The notes beneath the pieces are model-generated. The model did no database searches, was not told where the DNA came from, and saw nothing but the letters and a program-made list of their open reading frames with translations. Below, piece by piece: positions 5,178 through 61,417 of a DNA stretch of 64,000 nt (positions are counted from its first letter, which is position 1; each line of letters begins with the position of its first letter). The DNA is taken from assembly GCA_934096715.1 (NCBI GenBank), contig CAKOMQ010000001.1, positions 40,611 to 104,610 of the forward strand, in the 5' to 3' direction. Origin of the DNA: an uncultured Bacilli bacterium (GTDB lineage Bacteria > Bacillota_I > Bacilli_A > RF39 > UBA660). The translations under genes were made by a program, and so were the position numbers.

Positions 5178-5483
5178 TCAAGTTCTTTTTCTTACTTTTA
5201 CATGAATTTTACGTAATTTAACACCTTTTAAACAAGAAATACCAACATATATACCTACTAAAAGTGTCATTATAAAATAAATATGAAGATATCCATTATT
5301 TAGATAATATACCAGTATAACATAAATTATTAAAACATCTAAAGTAAATATTATAGTTAAAATATTATTGAATACTTTTTTTAAGTTATTAACAATTTTA
5401 TAATTCAATTTAAATAGAAAACTTGCAACTATTCCGTATAAAAATGAAAATATAAATGTTATTAATTGTATATTTGCAGTCAT
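5178..5483 (-). CDS. yabQ: Spore cortex biosynthesis protein YabQ
   Basis: 101 aa multi-TM protein. Its start overlaps the yabP stop by 1 nt. Conserved yabP-yabQ-divIC order. Confidence 0.7.
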   Translation of the reverse strand: MTANIQLITFIFSFLYGIVASFLFKLNYKIVNNLKKVFNNILTIIFTLDVLIIYVILVYYLNNGYLHIYFIMTLLVGIYVGISCLKGVKLRKIHVKVRKRT

Positions 5484-5773
5484 TATTTAAATAGTTTTGT
5501 TAATAAACTTTCTTCTTTTCCTTTTTTAACAGATTCAATATATTGAAAGCTATTAATTTTTCCTTTTATCTTTACATTACCATCATGAGTATCTAATTTA
5601 ATAACTTCTAATTTTTCACCTTTAATATGAATCATTCCCATTACTGATTCTAACAAAAATTCTTCATTATCAAAACTAACTATCTTTTTAATACCAGTAA
5701 GAGTTATAATACCCCTATCAATTATTTTTAATTCATGATTACCAAAATTTATTGACTCAGTTCCATTTTCCAT
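5483..5773 (-). CDS. yabP: Sporulation protein YabP
   Basis: 96 aa. YabP-like sequence (LTGIKKIVSFDNEEFLLES..IKGEKLEVIKLD) and synteny. Confidence 0.8.
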   Translation of the reverse strand: MENGTESINFGNHELKIIDRGIITLTGIKKIVSFDNEEFLLESVMGMIHIKGEKLEVIKLDTHDGNVKIKGKINSFQYIESVKKGKEESLLTKLFK

Positions 5774-16048: not shown

Positions 16049-16462
16049 TTATTTTTTTAAAGAATTAAAAAAATTGTGTAATTCATTTTTATATTCGTTT
16101 TTATATTGTTGAAAATCATTTAATTCTGTGAAAGTTGTGTTAAAATCAGACTTATAATCAAGTTTTTTTAGTAAATAATAAGCATTCCTAATTTTAACCG
16201 AATTAATTAAGCTTTTGCACATGTTACACGGCTCAAGGGTTGAATAAATTTCACAGTCAAACAAATTATTTCTTTTTAATTTTTTACAAGCCATTTTTAT
16301 AACTAATATTTCTGCATGATTAAATGGATTATGACACTTTTCCTTAGTATTATGAGCTTTAGCTATCACTTTACCATTTAGTATCAAAAAAGCACTAACA
16401 GGTACGTCTCCAAATTTAGAACATTTTTTTAATTCTTTATTAAAAATATTAATTACATTCAA
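16049..16462 (-). CDS. tadA: tRNA-specific adenosine deaminase
   Basis: HAE and PCNMC zinc-deaminase motifs. The ORF-track N-terminus (to 16516) overlaps the SRP RNA, so the start was moved to TTG 16462, which follows AGGTGA. The exact start is uncertain. Confidence 0.8.
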   Translation of the reverse strand: MNVINIFNKELKKCSKFGDVPVSAFLILNGKVIAKAHNTKEKCHNPFNHAEILVIKMACKKLKRNNLFDCEIYSTLEPCNMCKSLINSVKIRNAYYLLKKLDYKSDFNTTFTELNDFQQYKNEYKNELHNFFNSLKK

Positions 16463-16499
16463 AATATCACCTACAAACAAACGTTTTATTACTAAATAT

Positions 16500-16580
16500 A
16501 AAAAATGCACACACAAACAGGGATTGATGTGGCTGCTGTATTCCTACTCTGACCAGATTACAATATATTTGTTGTGCAAT
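16500..16580 (-). ncRNA. ffs: Small (4.5S-type) signal recognition particle RNA
   Basis: Minus-strand read: UGCACAACAAA..CUGGUCAGAGUAGGAAUACAGCAGCCACAUC..UUUGUGUGUGCA followed by UUUUUU. Domain IV core GGUCAG-AGUA-GGAA-UAC-AGCAGCC matches E. coli GGUCAG-GUCC-GGAA-GGA-AGCAGCC with compensatory stem changes. The termini pair with each other. Adjacent to tadA and dnaX as scr is in Bacilli. Confidence 0.85.
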
Positions 16581-16583
16581 ATA

Positions 16584-16611
16584 ATTGTATCATATATTTT
16601 AATCATTACAA
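16584..16611 (-). promoter_or_regulatory. Sigma-A type promoter for ffs
   Basis: On the minus strand: -35 TTGTAA (16611-16606), 16 nt spacer, extended -10 TGATACAAT (-10 hexamer at 16589-16584). This puts the start about 6 nt before UGCACAAC. Confidence 0.6.
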
Positions 16612-16625
16612 TAATTTTTCAGCAA

Positions 16626-16641
16626 TGTTTCACGTGAAACA
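16626..16641. promoter_or_regulatory. parS site 1 (perfect TGTTTCACGTGAAACA), type I flank
   Basis: Exact 16-mer, read directly from the sequence. Confidence 0.9.
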
Positions 16642-16670
16642 TAAAAAATATAATTTAAAAATTACAAAAA

Positions 16671-16686
16671 TATTTCCCGGGAAATA
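16671..16686. promoter_or_regulatory. NBS-type palindrome 1 (perfect TATTTCCCGGGAAATA)
   Basis: Exact 16-mer, 45 bp centre-to-centre from parS 1. Confidence 0.85.
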
Positions 16687-16717
16687 TTTTTTTAACCAAT
16701 TCTCTAGAAATTTGTCT

Positions 16718-16731
16718 GGGAAATATTTCCC
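16718..16731. promoter_or_regulatory. Everted-NBS palindrome 1 (GGGAAATATTTCCC)
   Basis: Exact 14-mer, 46 bp from NBS 1. Confidence 0.8.
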
Positions 16732-16791
16732 AAAGCATTAAATTATATATAGTGAATAATAATTATTAAACAAATATTTAACTATTAACAA

Positions 16792-16807
16792 TGTTTCACG
16801 TGAAACA
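16792..16807. promoter_or_regulatory. parS site 2 (perfect), type II flank
   Basis: Exact 16-mer, read directly from the sequence. Confidence 0.9.
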
Positions 16808-16939
16808 TAGAATATAATATGATCTAATTTTAACTAATTATTAATTAATATAAAATAAATATAACATTAAAAAAGCTATTATTATTAACACTAAATTATA
16901 TTATTAATTATTATTTAATAAACAATTGATTTTCAACAA

Positions 16940-16955
16940 TGTTTCACGTGAAACA
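16940..16955. promoter_or_regulatory. parS site 3 (perfect), type I flank
   Basis: Exact 16-mer, read directly from the sequence. Confidence 0.9.
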
Positions 16956-16986
16956 TTAAAAATATAATTTAAAAATAATTGAAAAT

Positions 16987-17002
16987 TATTTCCCGGGAAA
17001 TA
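16987..17002. promoter_or_regulatory. NBS-type palindrome 2 (perfect)
   Basis: Exact 16-mer, 47 bp from parS 3. Confidence 0.85.
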
Positions 17003-17031
17003 TTTTTTACCAATTCTCTAGAAATTCGCTT

Positions 17032-17045
17032 GGGAAATATTTCCC
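17032..17045. promoter_or_regulatory. Everted-NBS palindrome 2
   Basis: Exact 14-mer inside the 22 bp perfect palindrome GCTTGGGAAATATTTCCCAAGC. Confidence 0.8.
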
Positions 17046-17217
17046 AAGCATTAAATGAATTATAATTTCCATTAACAAAAAATAAATAATCGTCTAACTA
17101 TTAATAATAATGAGTGTGAAACAAAATAAGTAATTATACACTAAAAAATTTAATTATACCTATATTTAATATTCTGTATTTGAAAATAACAATTAATAAA
17201 GAGCTATGCAATGTCAA

Positions 17218-17233
17218 TGTTTCACGTGAAACA
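17218..17233. promoter_or_regulatory. parS site 4 (perfect), type II flank
   Basis: Exact 16-mer, read directly from the sequence. Confidence 0.9.
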
Positions 17234-17360
17234 TATGATATAATATGATCTAATTTTAACTAATTATTAATTATATATAAAATATATATAACATTAAAGC
17301 TATTATTAATACTAAATTAAATTTATATTTATTATTTAATAAGCAATAAAATTTCAACAA

Positions 17361-17376
17361 TGTTTCACGTGAAACA
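17361..17376. promoter_or_regulatory. parS site 5 (perfect), type I flank
   Basis: Exact 16-mer, read directly from the sequence. Confidence 0.9.
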
Positions 17377-17406
17377 TTAAAAATATAACTAAAAAATGAA
17401 CAAAAT

Positions 17407-17422
17407 TATTTCCCGGGAAATA
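17407..17422. promoter_or_regulatory. NBS-type palindrome 3 (perfect)
   Basis: Exact 16-mer, 46 bp from parS 5. Extended palindrome AAAATTATTTCCCGGGAAATAATTTT. Confidence 0.85.
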
Positions 17423-17453
17423 ATTTTATTACCAATTCTCTGGAAATTCGTAT

Positions 17454-17467
17454 GGGAAATATTTCCC
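17454..17467. promoter_or_regulatory. Everted-NBS palindrome 3
   Basis: Exact 14-mer, 46 bp from NBS 3. Confidence 0.8.
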
Positions 17468-17527
17468 AAAGCATTAAATTAAATATAGTAAATAATTAAT
17501 ATTAAACAAATGATTAACTATTAACAA

Positions 17528-17543
17528 TGTTTCACGTGAAACA
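17528..17543. promoter_or_regulatory. parS site 6 (perfect), type II flank
   Basis: Exact 16-mer, read directly from the sequence. Confidence 0.9.
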
Positions 17544-17671
17544 TATGATATAATATGATCTAATTTTAACTAATTATAAATATAAATAAAATAATATAAC
17601 AATAAAGTTATTTTTATTAATACTAAATTATATAAATGATTACTATTTAATAAACTATAATTTTTCAACAA

Positions 17672-17687
17672 TGTTTCACGTGAAACA
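17672..17687. promoter_or_regulatory. parS site 7 (perfect), type I flank
   Basis: Exact 16-mer, read directly from the sequence. Confidence 0.9.
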
Positions 17688-17717
17688 TTAAAAATATAAT
17701 TTAAAAATAAGTAAAAT

Positions 17718-17733
17718 TATTTCCCGGGAAATA
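17718..17733. promoter_or_regulatory. NBS-type palindrome 4 (perfect)
   Basis: Exact 16-mer, 46 bp from parS 7. Confidence 0.85.
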
Positions 17734-17764
17734 ATTTTATTACCAATTCTGTAGAAATTCGCTT

Positions 17765-17778
17765 GGGAAATATTTCCC
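17765..17778. promoter_or_regulatory. Everted-NBS palindrome 4
   Basis: Exact 14-mer inside a 22 bp perfect palindrome. Confidence 0.8.
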
Positions 17779-17949
17779 AAGCATTAAGTGAATTATAATT
17801 TTCATTAACGAAAAATAAATAATCGTTAACTATTAATAATAATGAGTGTGAAACAAAATACGTAATTATACACAAAAAAATCTAATTATACTTACATTTA
17901 ATATTTTTTATTTAAAAATAGAAATTAACAAAGAACTATATATTGCCAA

Positions 17950-17965
17950 TGTTTCACGTGAAACA
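17950..17965. promoter_or_regulatory. parS site 8 (perfect), hybrid flanks (left type II-long, right type I)
   Basis: Exact 16-mer. Flank comparison suggests a recombinant junction. Confidence 0.9.
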
Positions 17966-17995
17966 TTAAAAGTATAAATTAAAAATGAGTAAAAT

Positions 17996-18011
17996 TATTT
18001 CCCGGGAAATA
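17996..18011. promoter_or_regulatory. NBS-type palindrome 5 (perfect)
   Basis: Exact 16-mer, 46 bp from parS 8. Confidence 0.85.
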
Positions 18012-18041
18012 ATTTTTAACCGATCTTCTAGAAATTTACTT

Positions 18042-18055
18042 GGGAAATATTTCCC
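18042..18055. promoter_or_regulatory. Everted-NBS palindrome 5
   Basis: Exact 14-mer, 45 bp from NBS 5. Confidence 0.8.
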
Positions 18056-18195
18056 AAAAAGTATAATTTTAATTTCACCACTATCTATTAAAGGCGTTAG
18101 GCATTAATATAATTTAAAAAATAATAAATGTTGAGAATTTATTAAAATAATAAAACAAACGTATTTTCGTAATCTCTTTTAAATTTAATTAAAAT

Positions 18196-18211
18196 TATTT
18201 CCCGGGAAATA
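18196..18211. promoter_or_regulatory. NBS-type palindrome 6 (perfect), no partner parS
   Basis: Exact 16-mer. Confidence 0.85.
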
Positions 18212-18242
18212 ATTTTATTACCAATTCTCTAGAAATTCGCTT

Positions 18243-18256
18243 GGGAAATATTTCCC
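18243..18256. promoter_or_regulatory. Everted-NBS palindrome 6
   Basis: Exact 14-mer, 46 bp from NBS 6 and 28 bp from NBS 7. Confidence 0.8.
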
Positions 18257-18262
18257 AAAAAG

Positions 18263-18292
18263 AAAAAAATATTTCCCGGGAAATATTTTTTT
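18263..18292 (-). terminator. Intrinsic (bidirectional) terminator downstream of gyrA, built on NBS 7
   Basis: 30 bp perfect palindrome with a GC core, flanked by A and T runs on both sides. Begins 7 nt after the gyrA stop. Confidence 0.7.
18270..18285. promoter_or_regulatory. NBS-type palindrome 7 (perfect), core of the gyrA terminator hairpin
   Basis: Exact 16-mer inside the 30 bp perfect palindrome AAAAAAATATTTCCCGGGAAATATTTTTTT. Confidence 0.85.
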
Positions 18293-23868: not shown

Positions 23869-24315
23869 TTAAAGAAATTTCAACTTAAAATTATTATTTA
23901 CAATATTTTTTAAAAGAACACATTTAATTATCAAATGATAAAATGAATTAAGTGAAATATTTAACATTATGTCAAAATCATTAGATAATTTAACCACTAA
24001 ATAATCATTATTTTTGTTGATATTTACTATCTTATCAACATTTATTAAAATAAACTCATTATTACGTATACTACCAATACATATAAATATCTTATTGTTA
24101 TCAATAAAAATTGGGTTTTTATATTTAGAATCTAACACTTTATTAACAAACTCTTTTCTACCTTTAAAACTACTACCATAAACTATACAACTATTATCTA
24201 AAATCTTAGTTATCTTTGTATTAGTATTAATTAATCTATTAGTCTCTCTAATAATTATTTTATTTTCATCTTTTTTTAAATACAATGTGTCTTCATTAAC
24301 AATATATTTTTCCAT
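23869..24315 (-). CDS. comK: ComK-family competence transcription factor
   Basis: ILDNSCIVYGSSFKGRKEFVNKVLDSKYKNPIFID..ISLNSFYHL aligns with B. subtilis ComK IVDRSCRFFGSSYAGRKAGTYEV..HKPPIMVD..ISYNSFENQ (recalled from memory). Start set at ATG 24315 behind GGGGGA. The ORF-track extension to 24369 is hydrophobic junk. Confidence 0.7.
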   Translation of the reverse strand: MEKYIVNEDTLYLKKDENKIIIRETNRLINTNTKITKILDNSCIVYGSSFKGRKEFVNKVLDSKYKNPIFIDNNKIFICIGSIRNNEFILINVDKIVNINKNNDYLVVKLSNDFDIMLNISLNSFYHLIIKCVLLKNIVNNNFKLKFL

Positions 24316-24400
24316 ATTATTCCCCCGTGAGTAACTACTATAACAAATTAAGATTAAAAAAATTGTCAAAAAAAATATTAAATAACCAAATTTAATATTT

Positions 24401-25637: not shown

Positions 25638-26993
25638 TTACAACTTTGCTTTAATTTCTTTCAACGTATTATTCAAAAGATCATTATTTGTTAAATCTTT
25701 TTTTATTTTCTCACAACTTGCTACTACCGTCGAATGATCTCTTCCGCCAAATTCTAAACCTATTTTAGCCAAATTTTCATCAGTTTCAATTCTACAGAGA
25801 TACATTGCTATATGTCTTGGTTTTGCAATATTATTACTTCTCTTTTTGCTTTTCAAATCTTCAACTGTTATTTTATAATAATCAGCTACTACTCTTTGAA
25901 TATGTGAAATAGTATTTTCTTGATAAATATTAGTATTTAAATAATCATTTAATGCTTCAACCGCAAAGTCTAAATCAATTCTATCGGGTAAATTTAAAGC
26001 TGTATATACAAGCAATCTATTTATAGTACCAAAAATATGTCTTATATCGGTAGTAGAAGCATTTGCAATGTATTCAATAACATCCTTATTAACTCTATCT
26101 TTTATACTTGAATTATTAATTTTTTGTTTTATTAGTTCACATCTTAGTTCAAAGTCTGGTGGATAAATATCTACTGGTAATCCCCATGTAAATCTACTTC
26201 TAAGTCTCTCTTCAATCTTTTTTAAATCATCTGGAGATCTATCACTAGATATAATTATCTGTTTATTAGCTTGATGTAAAGCATTAAAAGTATGAAAAAA
26301 TTCTTGTTGAGTAAGCTCAGCCCCTACCAAAAATTGAATATCATCTATTATTAATACATCAACATTACGATATTTACTTTTGAAGTTATTCGCATAGTTG
26401 ATTGACTGTGTTCCTTTCTCAATTTTAGATATATTTGAAAATTCCGATACATAATCATTACTTGTTGTATACAAAACTTTTTTATTAGAGTGTTCTGTAA
26501 TATAATTTCCAATTGCATGCATTAGATGAGTTTTTCCAACCCCACTTCTACCATAAATAAAAAGTGGATTATGTATTGTGCCCGGTGTTTGAGCAACATT
26601 CATTGCAGATACAAATGCGAGTCGATTGGACTCCCCAACTATAAAGTTATCAAAATTTAATTCAGGATTTAAGTTAGTATTCCACTCAACTATATTTTCT
26701 TCTTCTTCCTTTGTACTATTAAACTCTTCAATAGTATTAATTTCATCATTAGTTAAGAAATTAATTTCATAATTAATTCCTGTTAGCGAAAATAAAGTTT
26801 CTTCCATTAAATCTAAGTGACTAGTTAATGCAGTTTTATAAACTGGAATTGGAACCTTAATATTTATAACCTTATCATCCATTTTTAAAAGTTCAATATC
26901 CTTAAACCATATATTATAGGTAGTCGGATTTACTACTTTTTCAATTTCACTTAAAAAGACTTTAAAGATCTCATCTGTTTTCAAATCCACCAC
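25638..26993 (-). CDS. dnaA: Chromosomal replication initiator DnaA
   Basis: 451 aa. Walker A GRSGVGKTHL, C-terminal GGRDHSTV DNA-binding signature. GTG start. Confidence 0.97.
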   Translation of the reverse strand: MVDLKTDEIFKVFLSEIEKVVNPTTYNIWFKDIELLKMDDKVINIKVPIPVYKTALTSHLDLMEETLFSLTGINYEINFLTNDEINTIEEFNSTKEEEENIVEWNTNLNPELNFDNFIVGESNRLAFVSAMNVAQTPGTIHNPLFIYGRSGVGKTHLMHAIGNYITEHSNKKVLYTTSNDYVSEFSNISKIEKGTQSINYANNFKSKYRNVDVLIIDDIQFLVGAELTQQEFFHTFNALHQANKQIIISSDRSPDDLKKIEERLRSRFTWGLPVDIYPPDFELRCELIKQKINNSSIKDRVNKDVIEYIANASTTDIRHIFGTINRLLVYTALNLPDRIDLDFAVEALNDYLNTNIYQENTISHIQRVVADYYKITVEDLKSKKRSNNIAKPRHIAMYLCRIETDENLAKIGLEFGGRDHSTVVASCEKIKKDLTNNDLLNNTLKEIKAKL

Positions 26994-30845: not shown

Positions 30846-32708
30846 ATGTATGATGTAATTGTCGTTGGTGGCGGACATGCTGGTTGTGAAGCTAGTAACA
30901 TTACAAGTAGAATGGGTTTAAAAACTCTTTTAATTACTATAAATATAAATAATATCGCTGATATGCCATGTAATCCTTCAATTGGTGGATCTGCTAAAGG
31001 AATAATTGTTAGAGAAATTGACGCTTTAGGTGGACTTATGGGTAAGGTAGCTGATAAAAGTTTATTTCAAATTAAAATGTTAAATAGTTCAAAAGGTCCC
31101 GCTGTTATGGCTTTAAGAGCTCAAGCAGATAAAAAAGTATATCCTAAAGTAATGCTAGAATATTTAAATCAAAATAAACTTTTAGATATTAAAGAAAGTA
31201 TTGTAGAAGATCTACTAATAGAAGATAATGCCATAAAAGGCGTTTTATTAGAAGATGGAACTAAAATAAATAGTAAATCAGTAATATTAACAACTGGTAC
31301 ATATTTAAAATCTAATATATTAAAAGGTTCTAAAAGTATTCCTGAAGGACCACATGGAGAAAAAAGAAGTAATAAATTAAGTGATAATTTAAAAAAATAT
31401 GGATTTGATATTATTAGATTAAAAACAGGAACTCCTCCTAGAATTAAGAAAGATTCTATTAATTTTGATGTTTTAAAGGAAGAACTTGGAGATAATGAAT
31501 ATCACACTTTTAGTTTTGACTTACTTCCCCAATATAAAATAGAAGAACAACAAAAATGTTATTTATTATACACAAATAAATTAACTCACGAAATAATAAA
31601 TAAAAATTTACAAGAAAGTGCAATGTACGGTGGATATGCAACCGGAATAGGTCCAAGATATTGTCCTTCTATCGAAGATAAAGTAGTTCGCTTTAGTGAT
31701 AAAGAAAGACATCAACTATTTCTAGAACCTGAAAGTCTATATTATGATGAATGGTATTTACAAGGATTTTCAACTAGTATGCCAGAAAACATTCAAGAAG
31801 ATATGGTTCACAGTCTTTCAGGATTAGAAAATGCTGTAATCACTAAGTATGCTTATGCAATTGAGTATGATGCAATTAATTCTACACAAATAAATCCTAC
31901 ACTTGAATCAAAATTAATTGAAAATCTTTATACAGCTGGTCAAATTAATGGTACAAGTGGCTATGAAGAAGCTGCTGGTCAAGGAATAGTAGCAGGTATT
32001 AATGCAGGTTTAAAACTTAAAAATAAAGAGCCATTAGTTTTAAAAAGAAGTGATGCATATATTGGTGTTTTAATAGATGACTTAGTAACTAAAGGAGTAA
32101 AAGACCCTTACAGAATGCTTACTAGTAGAGCTGAATTTAGACTTTTATTAAGACACGATAATGCTGATTTAAGACTTCGTAAATATGGATATGAAGCCGG
32201 TGTTATAGATGAAGAACAATATAAGAGATTAATTACTAAAGAAAATAATATTTCTAATTTAATAAAAGAATTAAAAGACACTAATATTAAAGTAAATAAA
32301 GATTTTAGTGATTTATTTAATAATTATAAACTTTCTATTCCTACAAGTAATATAACTTATTATGATTTGTTAAAAAGACCTGAAATAAATTTTGATATAC
32401 TTGATAAGCTTCATTATTTTAATTACTCAGATGAAGTTAAAGACGAAGTTTATATCGAAACTAAATATATTGGTTACATTAATAAAGAGTTAAAAGAAGT
32501 AGAAAAATTAAAAAAATTAGAAGAAAAGAAAATACCTAAAGACATTAATTATGACAATGTTAGAAATTTAGCTAGTGAAGCAAGACAAAAATTAAAAGAA
32601 ATAAGACCAATTACTCTAGGACAAGCATCTAGAATAAGTGGGGTTAATCCTGTAGATATCTCTTTATTAGGTATATATTTAAAGAAAGAATATAATAAAA
32701 ATGACTAA
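30846..32708 (+). CDS. mnmG: tRNA uridine 5-carboxymethylaminomethyl modification enzyme MnmG
   Basis: 620 aa. FAD motif VVGGGHAGCEA. Confidence 0.97.
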   Translation: MYDVIVVGGGHAGCEASNITSRMGLKTLLITININNIADMPCNPSIGGSAKGIIVREIDALGGLMGKVADKSLFQIKMLNSSKGPAVMALRAQADKKVYPKVMLEYLNQNKLLDIKESIVEDLLIEDNAIKGVLLEDGTKINSKSVILTTGTYLKSNILKGSKSIPEGPHGEKRSNKLSDNLKKYGFDIIRLKTGTPPRIKKDSINFDVLKEELGDNEYHTFSFDLLPQYKIEEQQKCYLLYTNKLTHEIINKNLQESAMYGGYATGIGPRYCPSIEDKVVRFSDKERHQLFLEPESLYYDEWYLQGFSTSMPENIQEDMVHSLSGLENAVITKYAYAIEYDAINSTQINPTLESKLIENLYTAGQINGTSGYEEAAGQGIVAGINAGLKLKNKEPLVLKRSDAYIGVLIDDLVTKGVKDPYRMLTSRAEFRLLLRHDNADLRLRKYGYEAGVIDEEQYKRLITKENNISNLIKELKDTNIKVNKDFSDLFNNYKLSIPTSNITYYDLLKRPEINFDILDKLHYFNYSDEVKDEVYIETKYIGYINKELKEVEKLKKLEEKKIPKDINYDNVRNLASEARQKLKEIRPITLGQASRISGVNPVDISLLGIYLKKEYNKND

Positions 32709-33408
32709 AGAAGAATTTATTAAAGAATTAGAAAATCTTGGTATTCTAGTAAATGAAGAAATACTAAATAAATTAGATATTCTTACTAACGAGTTAATAA
32801 ACTATAACAAACATACAAATTTAACTAGAATTTTAGAAATCAATGATATATATCTTAAACATTATTATGATAGCTTAACCATTACTAAAATTATTGATTT
32901 AACTAAAATTAGCTATCTTATTGATTTAGGTACGGGTGCTGGATTTCCCGGTTTAATTATTAAGATTTTTTATCCAAATGTTGATGTTACATTGCTTGAC
33001 TCAAATATTAAAAAGATAACATGGTTAAAACATATTACTAACATTTTAAATATAAAGGTTAACATAATACATGATCGAATTGAAAATTATAGTAAGAATC
33101 ATTTAAATTATTATGATGTTGTCACATCACGTGCAGTTGCTAATTTAAGAGTACTTGCTGAACTTTCACTACCCCTTGTTAAAACAGATGGTTATTTTAT
33201 TCCTTTAAAAGCAAATTTAGATAATGAAATGGACGACTTAACTGGTACGCTAAATCATTTTTCAGCCGAGTTAATTGATAAAAAATCTTTTACTCTAATT
33301 AACGAAGGTAGCACTAGAAATATTCTAAAATATAAGAAAAATATTAATTCAAATATTAATGATATTAGATCTTACGATAAAATTTTAAAAAAGCCATTGA
33401 AAAAATGA
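32701..33408 (+). CDS. rsmG: 16S rRNA (guanine527-N7)-methyltransferase
   Basis: 235 aa. SAM motif DLGTGAGFPG. Confidence 0.95.
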   Translation: MTKEEFIKELENLGILVNEEILNKLDILTNELINYNKHTNLTRILEINDIYLKHYYDSLTITKIIDLTKISYLIDLGTGAGFPGLIIKIFYPNVDVTLLDSNIKKITWLKHITNILNIKVNIIHDRIENYSKNHLNYYDVVTSRAVANLRVLAELSLPLVKTDGYFIPLKANLDNEMDDLTGTLNHFSAELIDKKSFTLINEGSTRNILKYKKNINSNINDIRSYDKILKKPLKK

Positions 33409-33453
33409 CTTTTTTAAGTTATTATATTATATATAGAACAAGGGGAAGATAAT

Positions 33454-34413
33454 GTGAATAGAGAGTCACAAATTTTACAAGTGCCTATTGAAGATATTAT
33501 ACCTAATCGTTTTCAACCACGATTAAATTTTGACGACTCTTCATTACAGGAGTTAGCGGCATCAATTAAACAACATGGTATAATTCAACCACTAGTATTA
33601 AGAAAAACAGGAGATAAATATGAAATAATTGCTGGAGAAAGAAGATATAAAGCATCTCAAATAGCTGGTCTTGCAAGTGTTCCCGCAATTATAACTCAAA
33701 TGGATGATAAAAAATCTGCTGAAGTAGCAATTGTTGAAAATATTCAAAGAAGAGATTTATCTAGTATAGAAGAAGCAAGAAGTTATAAAGCATTACTAGA
33801 TAAGGGATACCTAACTCAAGAAGATTTAGCTAAACAAATGGGTATTAGTCAATCGCAAATTTCTAATAAACTAAGATTATTAACTTTAACTGAAGAAGTT
33901 CAACAAGCTTTGATGGAAGGAAAAATTTCCGAAAGACACGCACGAAGTCTACTTCAAGTAACAGATCCAGAAGAGCAAAAAAAATGGTTAGAAAAAATAA
34001 TTACAGAAAGACTAACTGTAAGAGATTTAGAGAAAAAGATTAAAGGAAAAGAAGATAATAATCAACCCATAATTAATATTAATCCAAACATTGAAGATAT
34101 AGTTAAAAATGCTCATGACATAGTAAATTCTTCGATTACTAAACAAACAGAATCAGCTACTCCTGAAGAGAAAATGGAAAACAAATTCTTTAACCCTTTA
34201 GAAAGTGTTTCAGTAAATATGAATTTAAATGATACTCCAGGTGAAGAAGTAGAATTACTAGATTTTGAATTACCTTCTAATATAATTAGAGATGATAAAA
34301 ATGAATTAATTATTAAAATTAAAAATTATATTAATAGTTTAAATAATAATAGAATTAAAATTAATGAGTCAGATATTGACAATAAACATCAAATTATTAT
34401 TACAATAGAATAA
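33454..34413 (+). CDS. noc: ParB/Noc-family CTPase DNA-binding protein, Noc-type recognition helix, no N-terminal membrane-targeting helix
   Basis: 319 aa. GTG start behind AGGGGAAG. NRFQPR and GERRYKA ParB boxes. HTH region SQSQISNKLRLL..ISERHARSLL and LSSIEEA resemble B. subtilis Noc rather than Spo0J (recalled from memory). Sits directly after rsmG, as noc does. Confidence 0.75.
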   Translation: MNRESQILQVPIEDIIPNRFQPRLNFDDSSLQELAASIKQHGIIQPLVLRKTGDKYEIIAGERRYKASQIAGLASVPAIITQMDDKKSAEVAIVENIQRRDLSSIEEARSYKALLDKGYLTQEDLAKQMGISQSQISNKLRLLTLTEEVQQALMEGKISERHARSLLQVTDPEEQKKWLEKIITERLTVRDLEKKIKGKEDNNQPIININPNIEDIVKNAHDIVNSSITKQTESATPEEKMENKFFNPLESVSVNMNLNDTPGEEVELLDFELPSNIIRDDKNELIIKIKNYINSLNNNRIKINESDIDNKHQIIITIE

Positions 34414-34442
34414 AAAACATCAATTTGAAGTGATGTTTTTTT
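34412..34442 (+). terminator. Terminator hairpin between convergent noc and PBP genes
   Basis: AAAAAACATCA..TGATGTTTTTTT. Overlaps the last codons of the minus-strand PBP gene. Confidence 0.6.
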
Positions 34443-36387
34443 CATTATTTTCTTTATTAACTATTTGCGCTTTAGTTGGTTCTGTACCTGCAACATAATA
34501 AAACATACTTGCTTTATTTACATCAGTAGTAATTGTTCCTGTTACACTATTTAACATTACTCCTACTACATTTTTTGGAGTTTCATACCAACTATTTCTT
34601 TTTTTTATTTGCTCCATTGTATCAGCCCAAACATTCTTTCCGAGTGACCCATATCCTTTAGTAAATTCCCTATTATCATCATATCCTGACCAAATTAACA
34701 TAAGCTCATCTGGATTATACCCTACACACCAATAATCTCCGTCAGTAGTACCAGTTTTAATAGAGTATTTTTGACTTAATTTACCCGCAATAGACAACGC
34801 TGTTGGATTTGTATAATCTTTAAATGTCGGATTAGTTGTATTTGTAAGAAGTTCATTTAATATATAAGTATAGTTAGGATTCAGAACAAGTTGTTTATTA
34901 CTTTTATGTTCATATATAACATTATCATTTTTATCAGTTATTTTTTTAATAAAATATAAATCTTTTTTATATCCACCACTAGCAAGTGTGGAATAGCCTC
35001 TAGCATAATCTAACATAGTTATTTCACTAGTTCCTAATGCCAATGAAGCATTCTTTTTAAGTTCTTCTCTAATACCTGCCCTATTTGCAATTTCAATTAA
35101 TGAATCTACTCCTAGAAATAAATTAGTTTTTACTGCATAAACATTATCAGAAAACGCAATAGCGGCAGCCATAGTTATTTCTTTATTAGCATATAAATTA
35201 CCGTAATTAGAAGGAGAATATGAATTTTTATTATTTATATTAAAAGTTGTCATTTCACTTTTAAAAGTAGAAGACGATGTCATATTATTTTCTAGTGCTG
35301 CATAATAAAGAAAAGGTTTCATAGTTGAACCCACTTGCCTTTTAGCTTTAGTTGCCCTATTAAATTCACTTAAAGCATAGTCCCTACCCCCAGTTAATGC
35401 TTCAATTTCTCCTGTACTAGGATTAGTTATAATACTTGCTACTTGTAATTCTTCAACATCTCCAAAATACTTAAGAATATTATTTTCTAAAGCAGTTTGC
35501 TTTTCCATATCTAAACAAGTATAAATTTTAAGTCCCCCCTTCTCTAGTATCTCTCTATTTATACCTAAGTTAGATAGTTCATCAATAACAGCATCTTGAT
35601 AATACATTAGCATTTGTAAGTTATTACTTTCTGATTTACCATAAATCTCTACACTATCAAAATCTAACTTATCATATTCATCTTTAGTTAATTTATTTTC
35701 TTTATACATAAGCTTAGCAACTATTCTTGCTCTTTTTATACATTCTTCTTTATTACTAACTGGATTATAATTATTAGGGCTCTTTGGTATACCTGCTAAC
35801 ATTATTGATTCTTCAAGTGTTAATTCACTTACTTTTTTATTAAAATAGTAGCTACTCGCATTACTTATTCCATAGTTTCCTTGCCCATAGTTTATTGTAT
35901 TTAAATATGCTTCTAAAATATCATCTTTATCGTATTGCATTTCTGTAATAATAGTTAAAAATGCTTCCTTCCCTTTTCTTTCCCATGTCTTATCAAAATC
36001 TAAATACAAATTTTTAACAAGTTGTTGAGTAATAGTAGACGCTCCTTCTACTATTCTTTTACTTTTCATATTATTCATAAGCGCTTTTCCAATTCTAAGT
36101 ACATCAAAGCCATAATGGTTATAAAAATTTTTATCTTCAATTGATATAACTGCATCTTTAGTTTCTTTTTTTATTTCCTTAATATCTATCCAACTCTTAG
36201 AACTACTTCCTTGATAAATTATGTTATCTTTATTATCGTATATGAAGTAAGTCCCACTAGATTCTATATTAAGTTTAGGAGAAATACTAGCGTATATATA
36301 GACACCAAGATAGCTAACTAAAACAAAAATAAATATAAAAGTCATCAATTTTATTAGTACTTTAAAAGCTTTCATTTTCTTCACCAA
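34420..36387 (-). CDS. Bifunctional class A penicillin-binding protein (transglycosylase/transpeptidase)
   Basis: 655 aa. N-terminal TM, GT51 motifs EDKNFYNHYGFD and GASTITQQL, transpeptidase STMKP. Confidence 0.9.
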   Translation of the reverse strand: MVKKMKAFKVLIKLMTFIFIFVLVSYLGVYIYASISPKLNIESSGTYFIYDNKDNIIYQGSSSKSWIDIKEIKKETKDAVISIEDKNFYNHYGFDVLRIGKALMNNMKSKRIVEGASTITQQLVKNLYLDFDKTWERKGKEAFLTIITEMQYDKDDILEAYLNTINYGQGNYGISNASSYYFNKKVSELTLEESIMLAGIPKSPNNYNPVSNKEECIKRARIVAKLMYKENKLTKDEYDKLDFDSVEIYGKSESNNLQMLMYYQDAVIDELSNLGINREILEKGGLKIYTCLDMEKQTALENNILKYFGDVEELQVASIITNPSTGEIEALTGGRDYALSEFNRATKAKRQVGSTMKPFLYYAALENNMTSSSTFKSEMTTFNINNKNSYSPSNYGNLYANKEITMAAAIAFSDNVYAVKTNLFLGVDSLIEIANRAGIREELKKNASLALGTSEITMLDYARGYSTLASGGYKKDLYFIKKITDKNDNVIYEHKSNKQLVLNPNYTYILNELLTNTTNPTFKDYTNPTALSIAGKLSQKYSIKTGTTDGDYWCVGYNPDELMLIWSGYDDNREFTKGYGSLGKNVWADTMEQIKKRNSWYETPKNVVGVMLNSVTGTITTDVNKASMFYYVAGTEPTKAQIVNKENNEKNITSN

Positions 36388-39091: not shown

Positions 39092-39130
39092 TATTAACTA
39101 TAATTAATCATAATTTACTTGGGTGACATT

Positions 39131-39637
39131 ATGAAAAAAATTATAGTTATTTTATTTTTATTAGTAAGTATTTCAGTAATAGTTAATGAAAAAGAAAATA
39201 TTCTAATTCCTAAAGATGCTATTAGATTTAGAATTATTGCTAATAGTGATTCAATGGAAGATCAAGAATTAAAACTTACGATCAAAAATGATGTAGAAAA
39301 AGAATTATTTACTCTTTTAAAAGGGGCTGAAACCATAGATGAAGCTAGAAATAGAATAAATGATAATATAAATTCTATAAAAAAAATAGTAGATAAATAC
39401 AATGTTAGATATGATATAACTTATGGAAATAATTATTTCCCAACAAAAGAATATAAAGGAGTAAATTATACTGAAGGAAATTATGAATCTTTAGTTATAA
39501 GCTTGGGTAACGCTGTAGGCAAAAACTGGTGGTGTGTTTTATTTCCACCATTATGTATGCTTGATGAACAAACAAACCTATCTGATAAAGATTATCGCTT
39601 TTTTGTATATGATTTAATTAATAAAACTAACAAATAA
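39131..39637 (+). CDS. spoIIR: Stage II sporulation protein R
   Basis: RFRIIANSDS..NWWCVLFPPLC SpoIIR signature. Signal-like N-terminus. Start at ATG 39131. Confidence 0.85.
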   Translation: MKKIIVILFLLVSISVIVNEKENILIPKDAIRFRIIANSDSMEDQELKLTIKNDVEKELFTLLKGAETIDEARNRINDNINSIKKIVDKYNVRYDITYGNNYFPTKEYKGVNYTEGNYESLVISLGNAVGKNWWCVLFPPLCMLDEQTNLSDKDYRFFVYDLINKTNK

Positions 39638-60922: not shown

Positions 60923-61417
60923 TTGAATAATAGTGGTATTACAAGAAGAATAGATGAGTTAGGGCGAATTGTTGTGCCTAAAGAATTAAGAAATAATTTA
61001 GGTATAAGAGATGGTGAGCCGCTTCTAATATACACAAACAATGACTCAATAATTATAAAGAAGTATTCAAAATTAGAAAAATATGAAGATAAAATAAACA
61101 AATATTCAAACATAATAAAAGAATTTATAGATGATGATTTAATAATAACTGATAGAGAAAAAGTTATATTTTCAACAAGCAACGACTTTGAACTTGATAA
61201 AAAGATAGATAACAAATTAATTAAATTAATAGATAATAGAGAAAGTTATTTAAAAAATGAGTTAGATAGTTTTATGGGAATAGGGGGTTATTATAAGATA
61301 ATACCTATAATAAATGAATCAGACAGTTTAGGATTGATTATTTTATATAGTAAAGATAATAAATATGATTATTTAAATTACATTAAAATTCTTAGGAATT
61401 TAATATCATCTTGCTAA
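60923..61417 (+). CDS. spoVT: AbrB-family regulator, SpoVT-like (SpoVT-AbrB N-domain plus GAF-like C-domain)
   Basis: 164 aa. TTG start. GITRRIDELGRIVVPKELRNNLGIRDGEPL swapped-hairpin motif. Confidence 0.8.
   Translation: MNNSGITRRIDELGRIVVPKELRNNLGIRDGEPLLIYTNNDSIIIKKYSKLEKYEDKINKYSNIIKEFIDDDLIITDREKVIFSTSNDFELDKKIDNKLIKLIDNRESYLKNELDSFMGIGGYYKIIPIINESDSLGLIILYSKDNKYDYLNYIKILRNLISSC

Follow-up and report, generated by a model that had tools for sequence, protein, structure and literature searches.

The 64,000-nucleotide stretch analysed here (contig CAKOMQ010000001.1 of an uncultured Bacilli bacterium; hereafter the window) spans the replication origin oriC, marked by a change in the sign of the GC skew at ~27 kb. 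About 6.5 kb to one side of oriC lies a gene for a ParB-family protein, which we assign to the lineage of Noc, and ~10 kb to the other side lies a non-coding array that carries both parS sites and Noc-binding sites (NBS). An initial annotation, made from the letters alone, had named this gene as the only ParB-family gene of the window and placed it after rsmG; tblastn and the open reading frames (ORFs) agreed on both points. Every checkable detail of its account of the sequence proved right, as did each of its interpretations that lent itself to a test. The gene, the parts of its product and the array are listed below.

33454-34413, + strand: gene for a 319-aa ParB-family protein, Noc lineage, short N-terminus (ORF, GTG start)
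33440-33446, + strand: ribosome-binding site AAGGGGA, 7 nt 5′ of the GTG start (direct reading of the sequence)
33415-33417, + strand: in-frame TAA, ending the upstream frame 12 codons 5′ of the start (translation of the upstream frame)
33469-33747, + strand: N-terminal ParB/Srx domain, binding cytidine triphosphate (CTP), residues 6-98 (Pfam PF02195, ParB_N, E 2.5e-34)
33754-34047, + strand: helix-turn-helix DNA-binding domain, residues 101-198 (Pfam PF17762, HTH_ParB, E 1.2e-34)
33850-33852, 33868-33870, 33883-33885 and 33934-33936, + strand: specificity positions Q133, K139, T144 and R161, respectively (alignment to Noc and Spo0J)
34048-34293, + strand: disordered linker of variable length, residues 199-280 (AlphaFold 2; predicted local distance difference test, pLDDT, <50 over most)
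34090-34110, + strand: third conserved linker element, residues 213-219; family consensus PNIExIKxxAxDI
34180-34203, + strand: linker motif NKFFNPLE, residues 243-250; family consensus P-N-K-F-F-N-x-L-E (alignment)
34252-34266, + strand: second linker motif ELLDF, residues 267-271, acidic-hydrophobic; family consensus E-E-I-E-[ML]-L-D-F
34294-34407, + strand: C-terminal alpha-beta-beta domain, residues 281-318 (AlphaFold 2, pLDDT ~82)
16626-18284, no strand: non-coding array between gyrA and the genes for the signal recognition particle (SRP) RNA and tadA, ~10 kb from oriC (motif search)

The GERR (residues 61-64) and ENxQR (95-99) motifs of the ParB/Srx domain were invariant in the family alignments, including one of 112 members, and AlphaFold 2 modelled this domain with a pLDDT of ~90. 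The C-terminal domain, presumed to be the dimerisation domain, was modelled as a helix (281-295) and two strands (301-308 and 311-318), and its end, like that in Noc, came after the second strand. PF23552, the C-terminal Pfam domain of the Spo0J type, was matched neither in a Pfam scan of the protein nor among the precomputed domains of the family; Spo0J proteins were listed with PF23552 and PF08535, and neither Noc nor the family with the short N-terminus was.

Only five residues (MNRES) stood ahead of the QILQVP..PNRFQPR core, and translation confirmed the initial annotation on this point and on the TAA that shuts the upstream frame. That frame read as a stop followed by VIILYIEQGEDN, with no in-frame ATG, GTG or TTG between the TAA and the GTG. 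The PNRFQPR box was thus preceded by 16 residues, compared with 39 in B. subtilis Noc. On 11 contigs, which came from several samples of human gut, the same 319-aa product was called, and 20 homologues that were read all started MNxESQVLNVPIEDIIPNRFQPR. An exhaustive search supplied the best 150 clusters at 50% identity to a set of 274 family members; in this set the distance from start to box was 9-29 residues, with 204 members at exactly 16, and the N-terminal extension was absent from every one (274/274). A sequencing error, which the initial annotation had kept in view, was ruled out by the 11 identical calls and the equally short homologues: the N-terminus is truly short, throughout the family.

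By comparison, each of the 41 bona fide Noc sequences retrieved began MKH[PS]F[SA]R[FL]F. The N-terminus of the 33454-34413 protein had a hydrophobic moment (muH) of 0.31 and a net charge of 0, versus 0.43 and +2 for the B. subtilis Noc helix. An N-terminal amphipathic helix was predicted in all Noc homologues examined by Adams et al. (2015, PMC4331003), and deletion of the 10 N-terminal residues of Noc abolished membrane binding and function; CTP controls this helix (Jalal et al. 2021, PMC8429893). The family thus lacks a feature that defines the Noc mode of action. These comparisons showed a very large family, from uncultured low-GC Bacilli of gut and rumen, without any N-terminal extension. 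In a representative search and in one with a profile of divergent members, both directed at cultured or named organisms, only uncultured members of the same family were among the matches listed. We found no description of a Noc family without the helix in the searchable literature.

Global similarity was only mildly informative on whether the protein was a Noc or a ParB. By phmmer against the PDB it scored 191 bits with Noc of G. thermoleovorans, 183 with Noc of B. subtilis and 179 with B. subtilis Spo0J. Its best sequence and fold matches in the PDB were the Noc structures 7NG0, 7NFU and 7OL9, and hhalign of the family profile gave 329 against Noc and 300 against Spo0J. With the NCBIfam model TIGR04285 the protein scored 274.6 bits, B. 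subtilis Noc 373 and B. subtilis Spo0J 256.6; under the curated cutoff of 315 bits the protein is not called Noc. The initial annotation had seen a better match to Noc than to Spo0J, a view that overstated the global match and held for the diagnostic residues and the tree.

Four positions, 173, 179, 184 and 201 in the numbering of Caulobacter ParB, set the specificity of ParB and Noc (Jalal et al. 2020, PMC7383237). Q173 contacts the adenine at NBS position 1 and R201 the cytosine at position 6, and a lysine at either 179 or 184 suffices to license this pair; R173 and G201 are kept without exception by ParB orthologues, and among parS-specific variants R173 does not vary (PMC7383237). In the alignment the equivalents were Q133, K139, T144 and R161, with the spacing of Caulobacter ParB (6, 11 and 28 residues from the first). 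The set for NBS specificity was present: Q133 and R161 were of the Noc type, in place of the parS-reading R173/G201, and K139 was the permissive lysine. Where it could be read, the pattern of the family was QK[S/N/T/A]R. Alignment at these positions, proposed in the initial annotation as a check, gave the Noc type and not the parS type.

Further characters pointed the same way. The PNRFQPR box was Noc-type, the Spo0J counterpart being PNPYQPR. Divergent family members carried the recognition sequence GKNQSTIANKLRLL and ended in EEFDFEDMYQIIxKIxK, which by its sequence is clearly kin to the end of B. subtilis Noc, EEEEFEEYIQLTIRIPK. A neighbour-joining tree (234 columns; 10 Noc, 7 Spo0J, 22 family members and two outgroups) held a split of the family plus Noc in 99% of 200 bootstraps. 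A model of the DNA-binding domain (DBD) superposed on the Noc DBD-NBS structure 6Y93 with a template modelling (TM) score of 0.88-0.89, and on the ParB DBD-parS structure 6S6H with 0.64-0.70. Since the specificity residues, the PNRFQPR box, the C-terminus, the lack of PF23552, the tree and the superposition all agreed, we concluded from these comparisons that the protein belongs to the Noc lineage, the sampling of the tree being narrow. It lies outside Noc in the strict sense and is a close relative, because both the defining helix and the curated score are wanting. It would probably load on DNA in the same way as Noc.

The array is a 1.7-kb non-coding stretch in which the two kinds of site are interleaved in repeat units. 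Perfect 16-bp parS sites (TGTTTCACGTGAAACA) had been noted in the initial annotation; there were eight, at 16626-17965, with 0.08 matches expected by chance. Seven perfect 16-bp NBS (TATTTCCCGGGAAATA; 0.18 expected), at 16672-18284 and interleaved with the parS sites, had not been reported in it. The NBS specificity that it had predicted for the protein was in keeping with these perfect sites, with residues Q133, K139 and R161 and with the 99% bootstrap for grouping with Noc. Five parS-NBS pairs had centres 46-48 bp apart. No further match to either motif was found elsewhere in the window with up to 2 mismatches allowed. In an independent assembly the array was identical base for base (2000/2000). 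The NBS sites are predicted to be the loading sites of the 33454-34413 protein.

Scanning of metagenomes for parS followed by NBS within 25-40 bp yielded 59 loci with mixed arrays (L088-L146), all of 20-31% GC, and in nearly all of them the sites lay between gyrA and tadA-dnaX. Together they held 207 parS and 168 NBS sites (at most 1 mismatch), and neighbouring sites formed 213 alternating and 73 repeating pairs; strict alternating tandems with a 67-76 bp period were seen in L098, L103, L129 and L140. The only sequences conserved across arrays were the two palindromes and their immediate flanks. One array locus (L126) and one family member (L002) appear to share a single 99,960-bp contig. Around the gene in 80 relatives, 1.24 Mb of sequence outside the arrays contained 15 NBS sites (at most 1 mismatch; 11 perfect) and no parS. 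NBS therefore occur in a scatter, as they do for Noc, and also in a cluster at the origin, and parS is confined to the origin array. No description of mixed parS/NBS arrays was found in the searchable literature.

Half-sites were counted in 16-mers of the form T-x-TT[TC]C-y-C / G-y'-G[AG]AA-x'-A within the arrays, the two discriminating positions being left free. Of 700 half-sites, 401 were of the parS type, 292 of the NBS type and 7 of other types, and the G2/C7 hybrid half-site never occurred. Among the 350 full sites, 198 were homotypic for parS and 145 for NBS, and a single one joined a parS half to an NBS half; ~60 of each site type were owed to ascertainment and the remainder were independent. 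The two discriminating positions are contacted by different residues (PMC7383237), so a single tolerant reader should allow hybrids. The strict covariation at both positions indicates two homodimeric readers. As the protein carries NBS-specific residues and the sites imply two readers, a separate canonical ParB is probably encoded elsewhere in the genome; we infer this second reader and did not see it. The initial annotation had left open a cytosolic NBS-specific ParB, a protein binding both sites, or one working with a ParB encoded elsewhere, and the parS/NBS dichotomy favours the last. In S. aureus, the parB gene is not known to be adjacent to noc.

A third palindrome, (GC)TTGGGAAATATTTCCCAA(GC), occurred in six copies in the array of the window (starts 16718, 17032, 17454, 17765, 18042 and 18243). 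It is made of the two NBS half-sites in everted order; each copy follows an NBS at ~46 bp and has CCAATTCTCTAGAAATTCG before it. This palindrome (GGGAAATATTTCCC) is species-specific and was rejected as a conserved component: it had 6 copies in the window but was found in only 2 related loci. Beside the array, a small bacterial SRP RNA gene (16491-16586, - strand; Rfam RF00169, 55.2 bits) overlapped the 5′ end of the ORF at 16049-16516 (tadA), so the true start of tadA would lie further downstream; in another assembly tadA was called at 137 aa.

Three further genes set the ParB-family gene in its neighbourhood.

32701-33408, + strand: rsmG (gidB), directly upstream of the ParB-family gene, the ancestral position of noc (ORF, Pfam GidB)
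34420-36387, - strand: class A penicillin-binding protein (PBP) gene, convergent, in place of soj-spo0J (ORF, Pfam Transgly and Transpeptidase)
25638-26993, - strand: dnaA

The ancestral origin (ORI) gene cluster of Firmicutes is inferred to have held parA, parB and noc together (PMC8136486). A tblastn search of the window with B. subtilis Soj, Spo0J and Noc (where aligned, the Spo0J and Noc queries agreed with PDB entries) gave no ParA, and 33454-34413 as the one ParB-like gene. Pfam tables for 10 kb beyond each end of it, taken from other assemblies of the same species, listed no ParB and no ParA. In those assemblies the left flank held Spo0A, pgm and the ribosomal protein operon, and the right flank tatD, rsmA, veg, spoVG, rpsF-ssb-rpsR, rplI and dnaB. 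The ancestral neighbourhood of soj-spo0J (rsmG ... rpsF-ssb-rpsR-rplI-dnaB) was present without soj-spo0J. The 20-kb loci around the orthologue in 80 species-level genomes contained exactly one ParB-like gene each and no Soj (tblastn), the 59 array loci gave no canonical ParB and no ParA with the same three queries, and Pfam tables of three divergent relatives listed no second ParB and no ParA. On the long contigs of these three, rsmG was followed by the family gene and then by uvrB or a PBP gene. The absence of Soj and of a second ParB, first described for the window, was seen alike at the locus of this genome and of 83 relatives; the convergent PBP gene, also in that description, was confirmed in the window. 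A promoter and terminator scan gave 9 promoter-like sites, against 8.5 expected.

In two of the divergent relatives (L150 and L152) uvrB, not a PBP gene, came next after the family gene. Their proteins reached 505-821 aa through long low-complexity linkers rich in N and Q, and kept the short N-terminus, a GKFF motif and the Noc-type C-terminal end.

Family proteins ranged from 227 to 821 aa because the length of the linker varies, and the linker was disordered in both AlphaFold models (built from 30 and 112 sequences). Short stretches of it were strongly conserved. In the first motif, P242, K244, F245, F246, N247 and E250 were at least 90% conserved in 112 sequences. In the second, one alignment showed E267 and L269 as invariant, with D270 and F271 conserved to at least 90%, and in that of 112 sequences E267 and F271 reached at least 90%. 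The third element, residues 213-219, was the only part of the linker modelled as a helix; it had the highest hydrophobic moment in the protein (0.70) and was net acidic. Near-invariant motifs within a hypervariable disordered linker form a pattern typical of interaction peptides.

The first motif bore some likeness to the missing helix. PNKFFNxLE was amphipathic, with a muH of 0.59 for the family consensus against the 0.43 of the B. subtilis Noc helix, and it resembled the core of the Noc membrane-targeting sequence, S-R-F-F-S-F-G-E. The two could be set in register (KHPFSRFFSFGE in Noc, KPxPNKFFNFLE in the family), and with a scoring matrix for the Noc N-terminus PNKFFNxLE was the best tail window in 151 of 273 proteins. 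Since this conserved amphipathic motif could substitute for it, absence of the helix is established for the N-terminus only. The initial annotation had put the protein down as without a membrane-targeting helix; this stood for the N-terminus and did not extend to the rest of the chain. An effector peptide may have moved into the linker, and for its target a membrane and a protein partner are equally plausible, each at a little under even odds. We regard the idea of a relocated helix as a lead.

Among known systems, Noc (YyaA; B. subtilis and G. thermoleovorans; 7OL9, 7NFU, 7NG0, 6Y93) was the nearest. Shared with it were the CTP-binding ParB/Srx domain with GERR and ENxQR, the PNRFQPR box, nearly identical recognition residues (SQSxISNKLRLL and ISERHAR here, GQSTIANKLRLL and ITERHAR in Noc), the alpha-beta-beta C-terminal domain, the gene position directly after rsmG, perfect 16-bp NBS in the genome and ~50% identity over 194 residues. 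The family differs in lacking the ~23 first residues of Noc (membrane-targeting helix alpha1, helix alpha2 and a loop) and in having a long disordered linker with conserved motifs, which is absent from Noc. Position 184 is T, S or N in the family and K in Noc, the NBS are concentrated beside parS at the origin and not only scattered, and the TIGR04285 score is below the curated threshold. Spo0J/ParB (6SDK, 1VZ0, 6T1F) resembled the protein in fold, in the CTP-clamp motifs, at ~45% identity and in the parS sites near oriC of the same genome, but R173/G201 is replaced by Q/R here, and the N-terminal ParA-activating peptide, an adjacent parA and PF23552 are lacking.

The closest laboratory counterpart is B. 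subtilis NocNdelta10, truncated so as to lack the membrane helix, which retains CTP binding and clamp closure on NBS DNA (PMC8429893) but is non-functional for nucleoid occlusion in B. subtilis (PMC4331003). The family here is natural and has the extra linker motifs; its short form is presumably functional, because it is conserved across the whole family. RacA, RicO (S. aureus) and RocS (S. pneumoniae) combine a sequence-specific DNA-binding domain and sites near oriC with a separate short element for a membrane or partner, and RicO works in a Firmicute without ParA (bioRxiv 10.64898/2026.03.06.710092). They come from unrelated families of proteins, none of them a CTP clamp, and read other DNA motifs; they would serve as a functional analogy for the effect of an origin-clustered NBS array, membrane binding being only proposed here.

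We therefore propose, at a rough probability of 0.6, that the protein is a CTP clamp of the Noc branch which nucleates at NBS, next to a canonical ParB on parS, and acts through its linker motifs. It would be a CTP-dependent DNA clamp of the ParB family, from the Noc side of the ancient parB/noc duplication in Firmicutes. Dimers would nucleate at NBS and, like those of B. subtilis Noc, form closed CTP clamps that slide onto the DNA alongside, and the densest loading zone in the lineage would be the origin-proximal array, where NBS alternate with parS. The parS sites would be read by a different, canonical ParB of the R173/G201 type, encoded outside the ~84 kb examined, and the origin region would thereby bear a mixed complex of ParB and Noc-like protein. 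Canonical tethering of DNA to the membrane would be impossible, because the N-terminal amphipathic helix is absent. The output would most likely come through the near-invariant short motifs of the linker: PNKFFNxLE may bind a membrane or a partner protein and so organise or anchor the origin region, and classical nucleoid occlusion from the scattered NBS sites may persist if the motif binds membrane.

Several observations weigh against this proposal. The 84 kb known from the species, the 80 20-kb loci, the 59 array loci and the three divergent relatives contained no canonical ParB or ParA. Global profile scores gave no clean separation from Spo0J (274.6 versus 256.6 bits with TIGR04285), and the tree was made by a distance method with Noc and Spo0J from Bacillaceae only, plus two outgroups. 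The likeness of the linker motif to the Noc helix was statistically weak (median z 1.2, with 29% above 2; Spo0J tails -0.14). The motif has a net charge of -1, versus +2 for the Noc helix, it contains a proline in the 33454-34413 protein (NPLES), and neither a helix nor docking was predicted for it in the two AlphaFold models.

The lack of ParA and of a second ParB in the 84 kb and in the loci of relatives, the empty ancestral soj-spo0J neighbourhood and the constant company of parS and NBS sites would also suit a sole ParB-family protein that serves as centromere protein with dual specificity, having taken over segregation after loss of soj-spo0J. If so, the clade would lack a canonical ParB, and one protein would read two palindromes at an alternating array. 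We consider this improbable: dual-specificity variants mostly have C, T or S at 201 and parS needs R173 (PMC7383237), but the protein has Q and R; pure half-sites numbered 693 of 700, with no G2/C7 hybrid and 1 mixed site in 350, where a tolerant reader should allow hybrids; and parS only in arrays with NBS also scattered is the pattern expected of two systems. It is more doubtful still that the protein is a Spo0J/ParB orthologue which, after loss of noc and soj, converged on Noc-like recognition residues and still serves parS. Its alignment to B. subtilis Spo0J is gapless over 190 residues, where alignments to Noc need 1-2 gaps, and its TIGR04285 score is near that of Spo0J. The grouping of the family with Noc in 99% of bootstraps, the PNRFQPR box, Q133, R161, the Noc-type C-terminal end and the lack of the Spo0J-type Pfam domain all speak against such descent, as do the missing N-terminal ParA-interacting peptide and the position immediately after rsmG.

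A purely cytosolic NBS clamp with no link to a membrane or partner, acting on DNA only, for example as an extra loader of structural maintenance of chromosomes (SMC) complexes, as a roadblock or insulator beside ParB, or as a local silencer, with the linker motifs serving folding or turnover, is unlikely, if worth keeping in mind. The lack of the N-terminal helix, the net acidic linker motif not predicted to be helical, and the ability of NocNdelta10 to bind CTP and form clamps (PMC8429893) agree with it, but two or three motifs near-invariant in a hypervariable disordered linker across more than 100 sequences do not, and the first of them, an amphipathic one, is similar to the core of the Noc helix. 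That an ordinary Noc gene only looks short at its N-terminus, through an artefact of assembly, frameshift or start codon, deserves almost no weight and is already refuted. In its favour are GTG as start codon and the origin of the sequence in a metagenome-assembled genome; against it, independent samples gave 11 contigs with the same 319-aa product, the frame is stopped 12 codons upstream without an intervening start codon, a good ribosome-binding site is present, and all 274 homologues, including the 150 clusters at 50% identity, start at the same place.

The accepted mechanism of Noc rests on the N-terminal helix: through it the protein tethers chromosomal DNA to the membrane and so prevents division over the nucleoid. 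The natural family described here, with 150 or more clusters at 50% identity, has kept Noc's DNA-reading head and CTP clamp, and not the helix. It leads to the questions of what role a Noc-type clamp has without its known effector end, whether the effector peptide was relocated to the linker, and why a lineage would have two ParB-family clamps loading next to each other at its origin. The family also provides a natural test of the rules of parS/NBS specificity derived from mutational scanning, and it comes from uncultured organisms that are common in the gut communities of humans and animals.

Elsewhere in the origin cluster, a ComK-family ORF (23869-24369, - strand) lay between dnaN and recF, an unusual site for a homologue of a competence regulator; Pfam PF06338 was assigned to the identical gene in L153. 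The window contained the sporulation genes yabP, yabQ, spoIIR and spoVT (ORFs 5178-5773, - strand; 39119-39637, + strand; 60923-61417, + strand). Spo0A, spoVG, veg and yabG lay just outside it, and L147 11233-12006 was among the sporulation loci. The lineage, of 25% GC and from uncultured gut material, carried submitter labels of Bacilli, Tenericutes or Mycoplasma. As sporulation genes and a class A PBP are present, the organism is walled and probably spore-forming.

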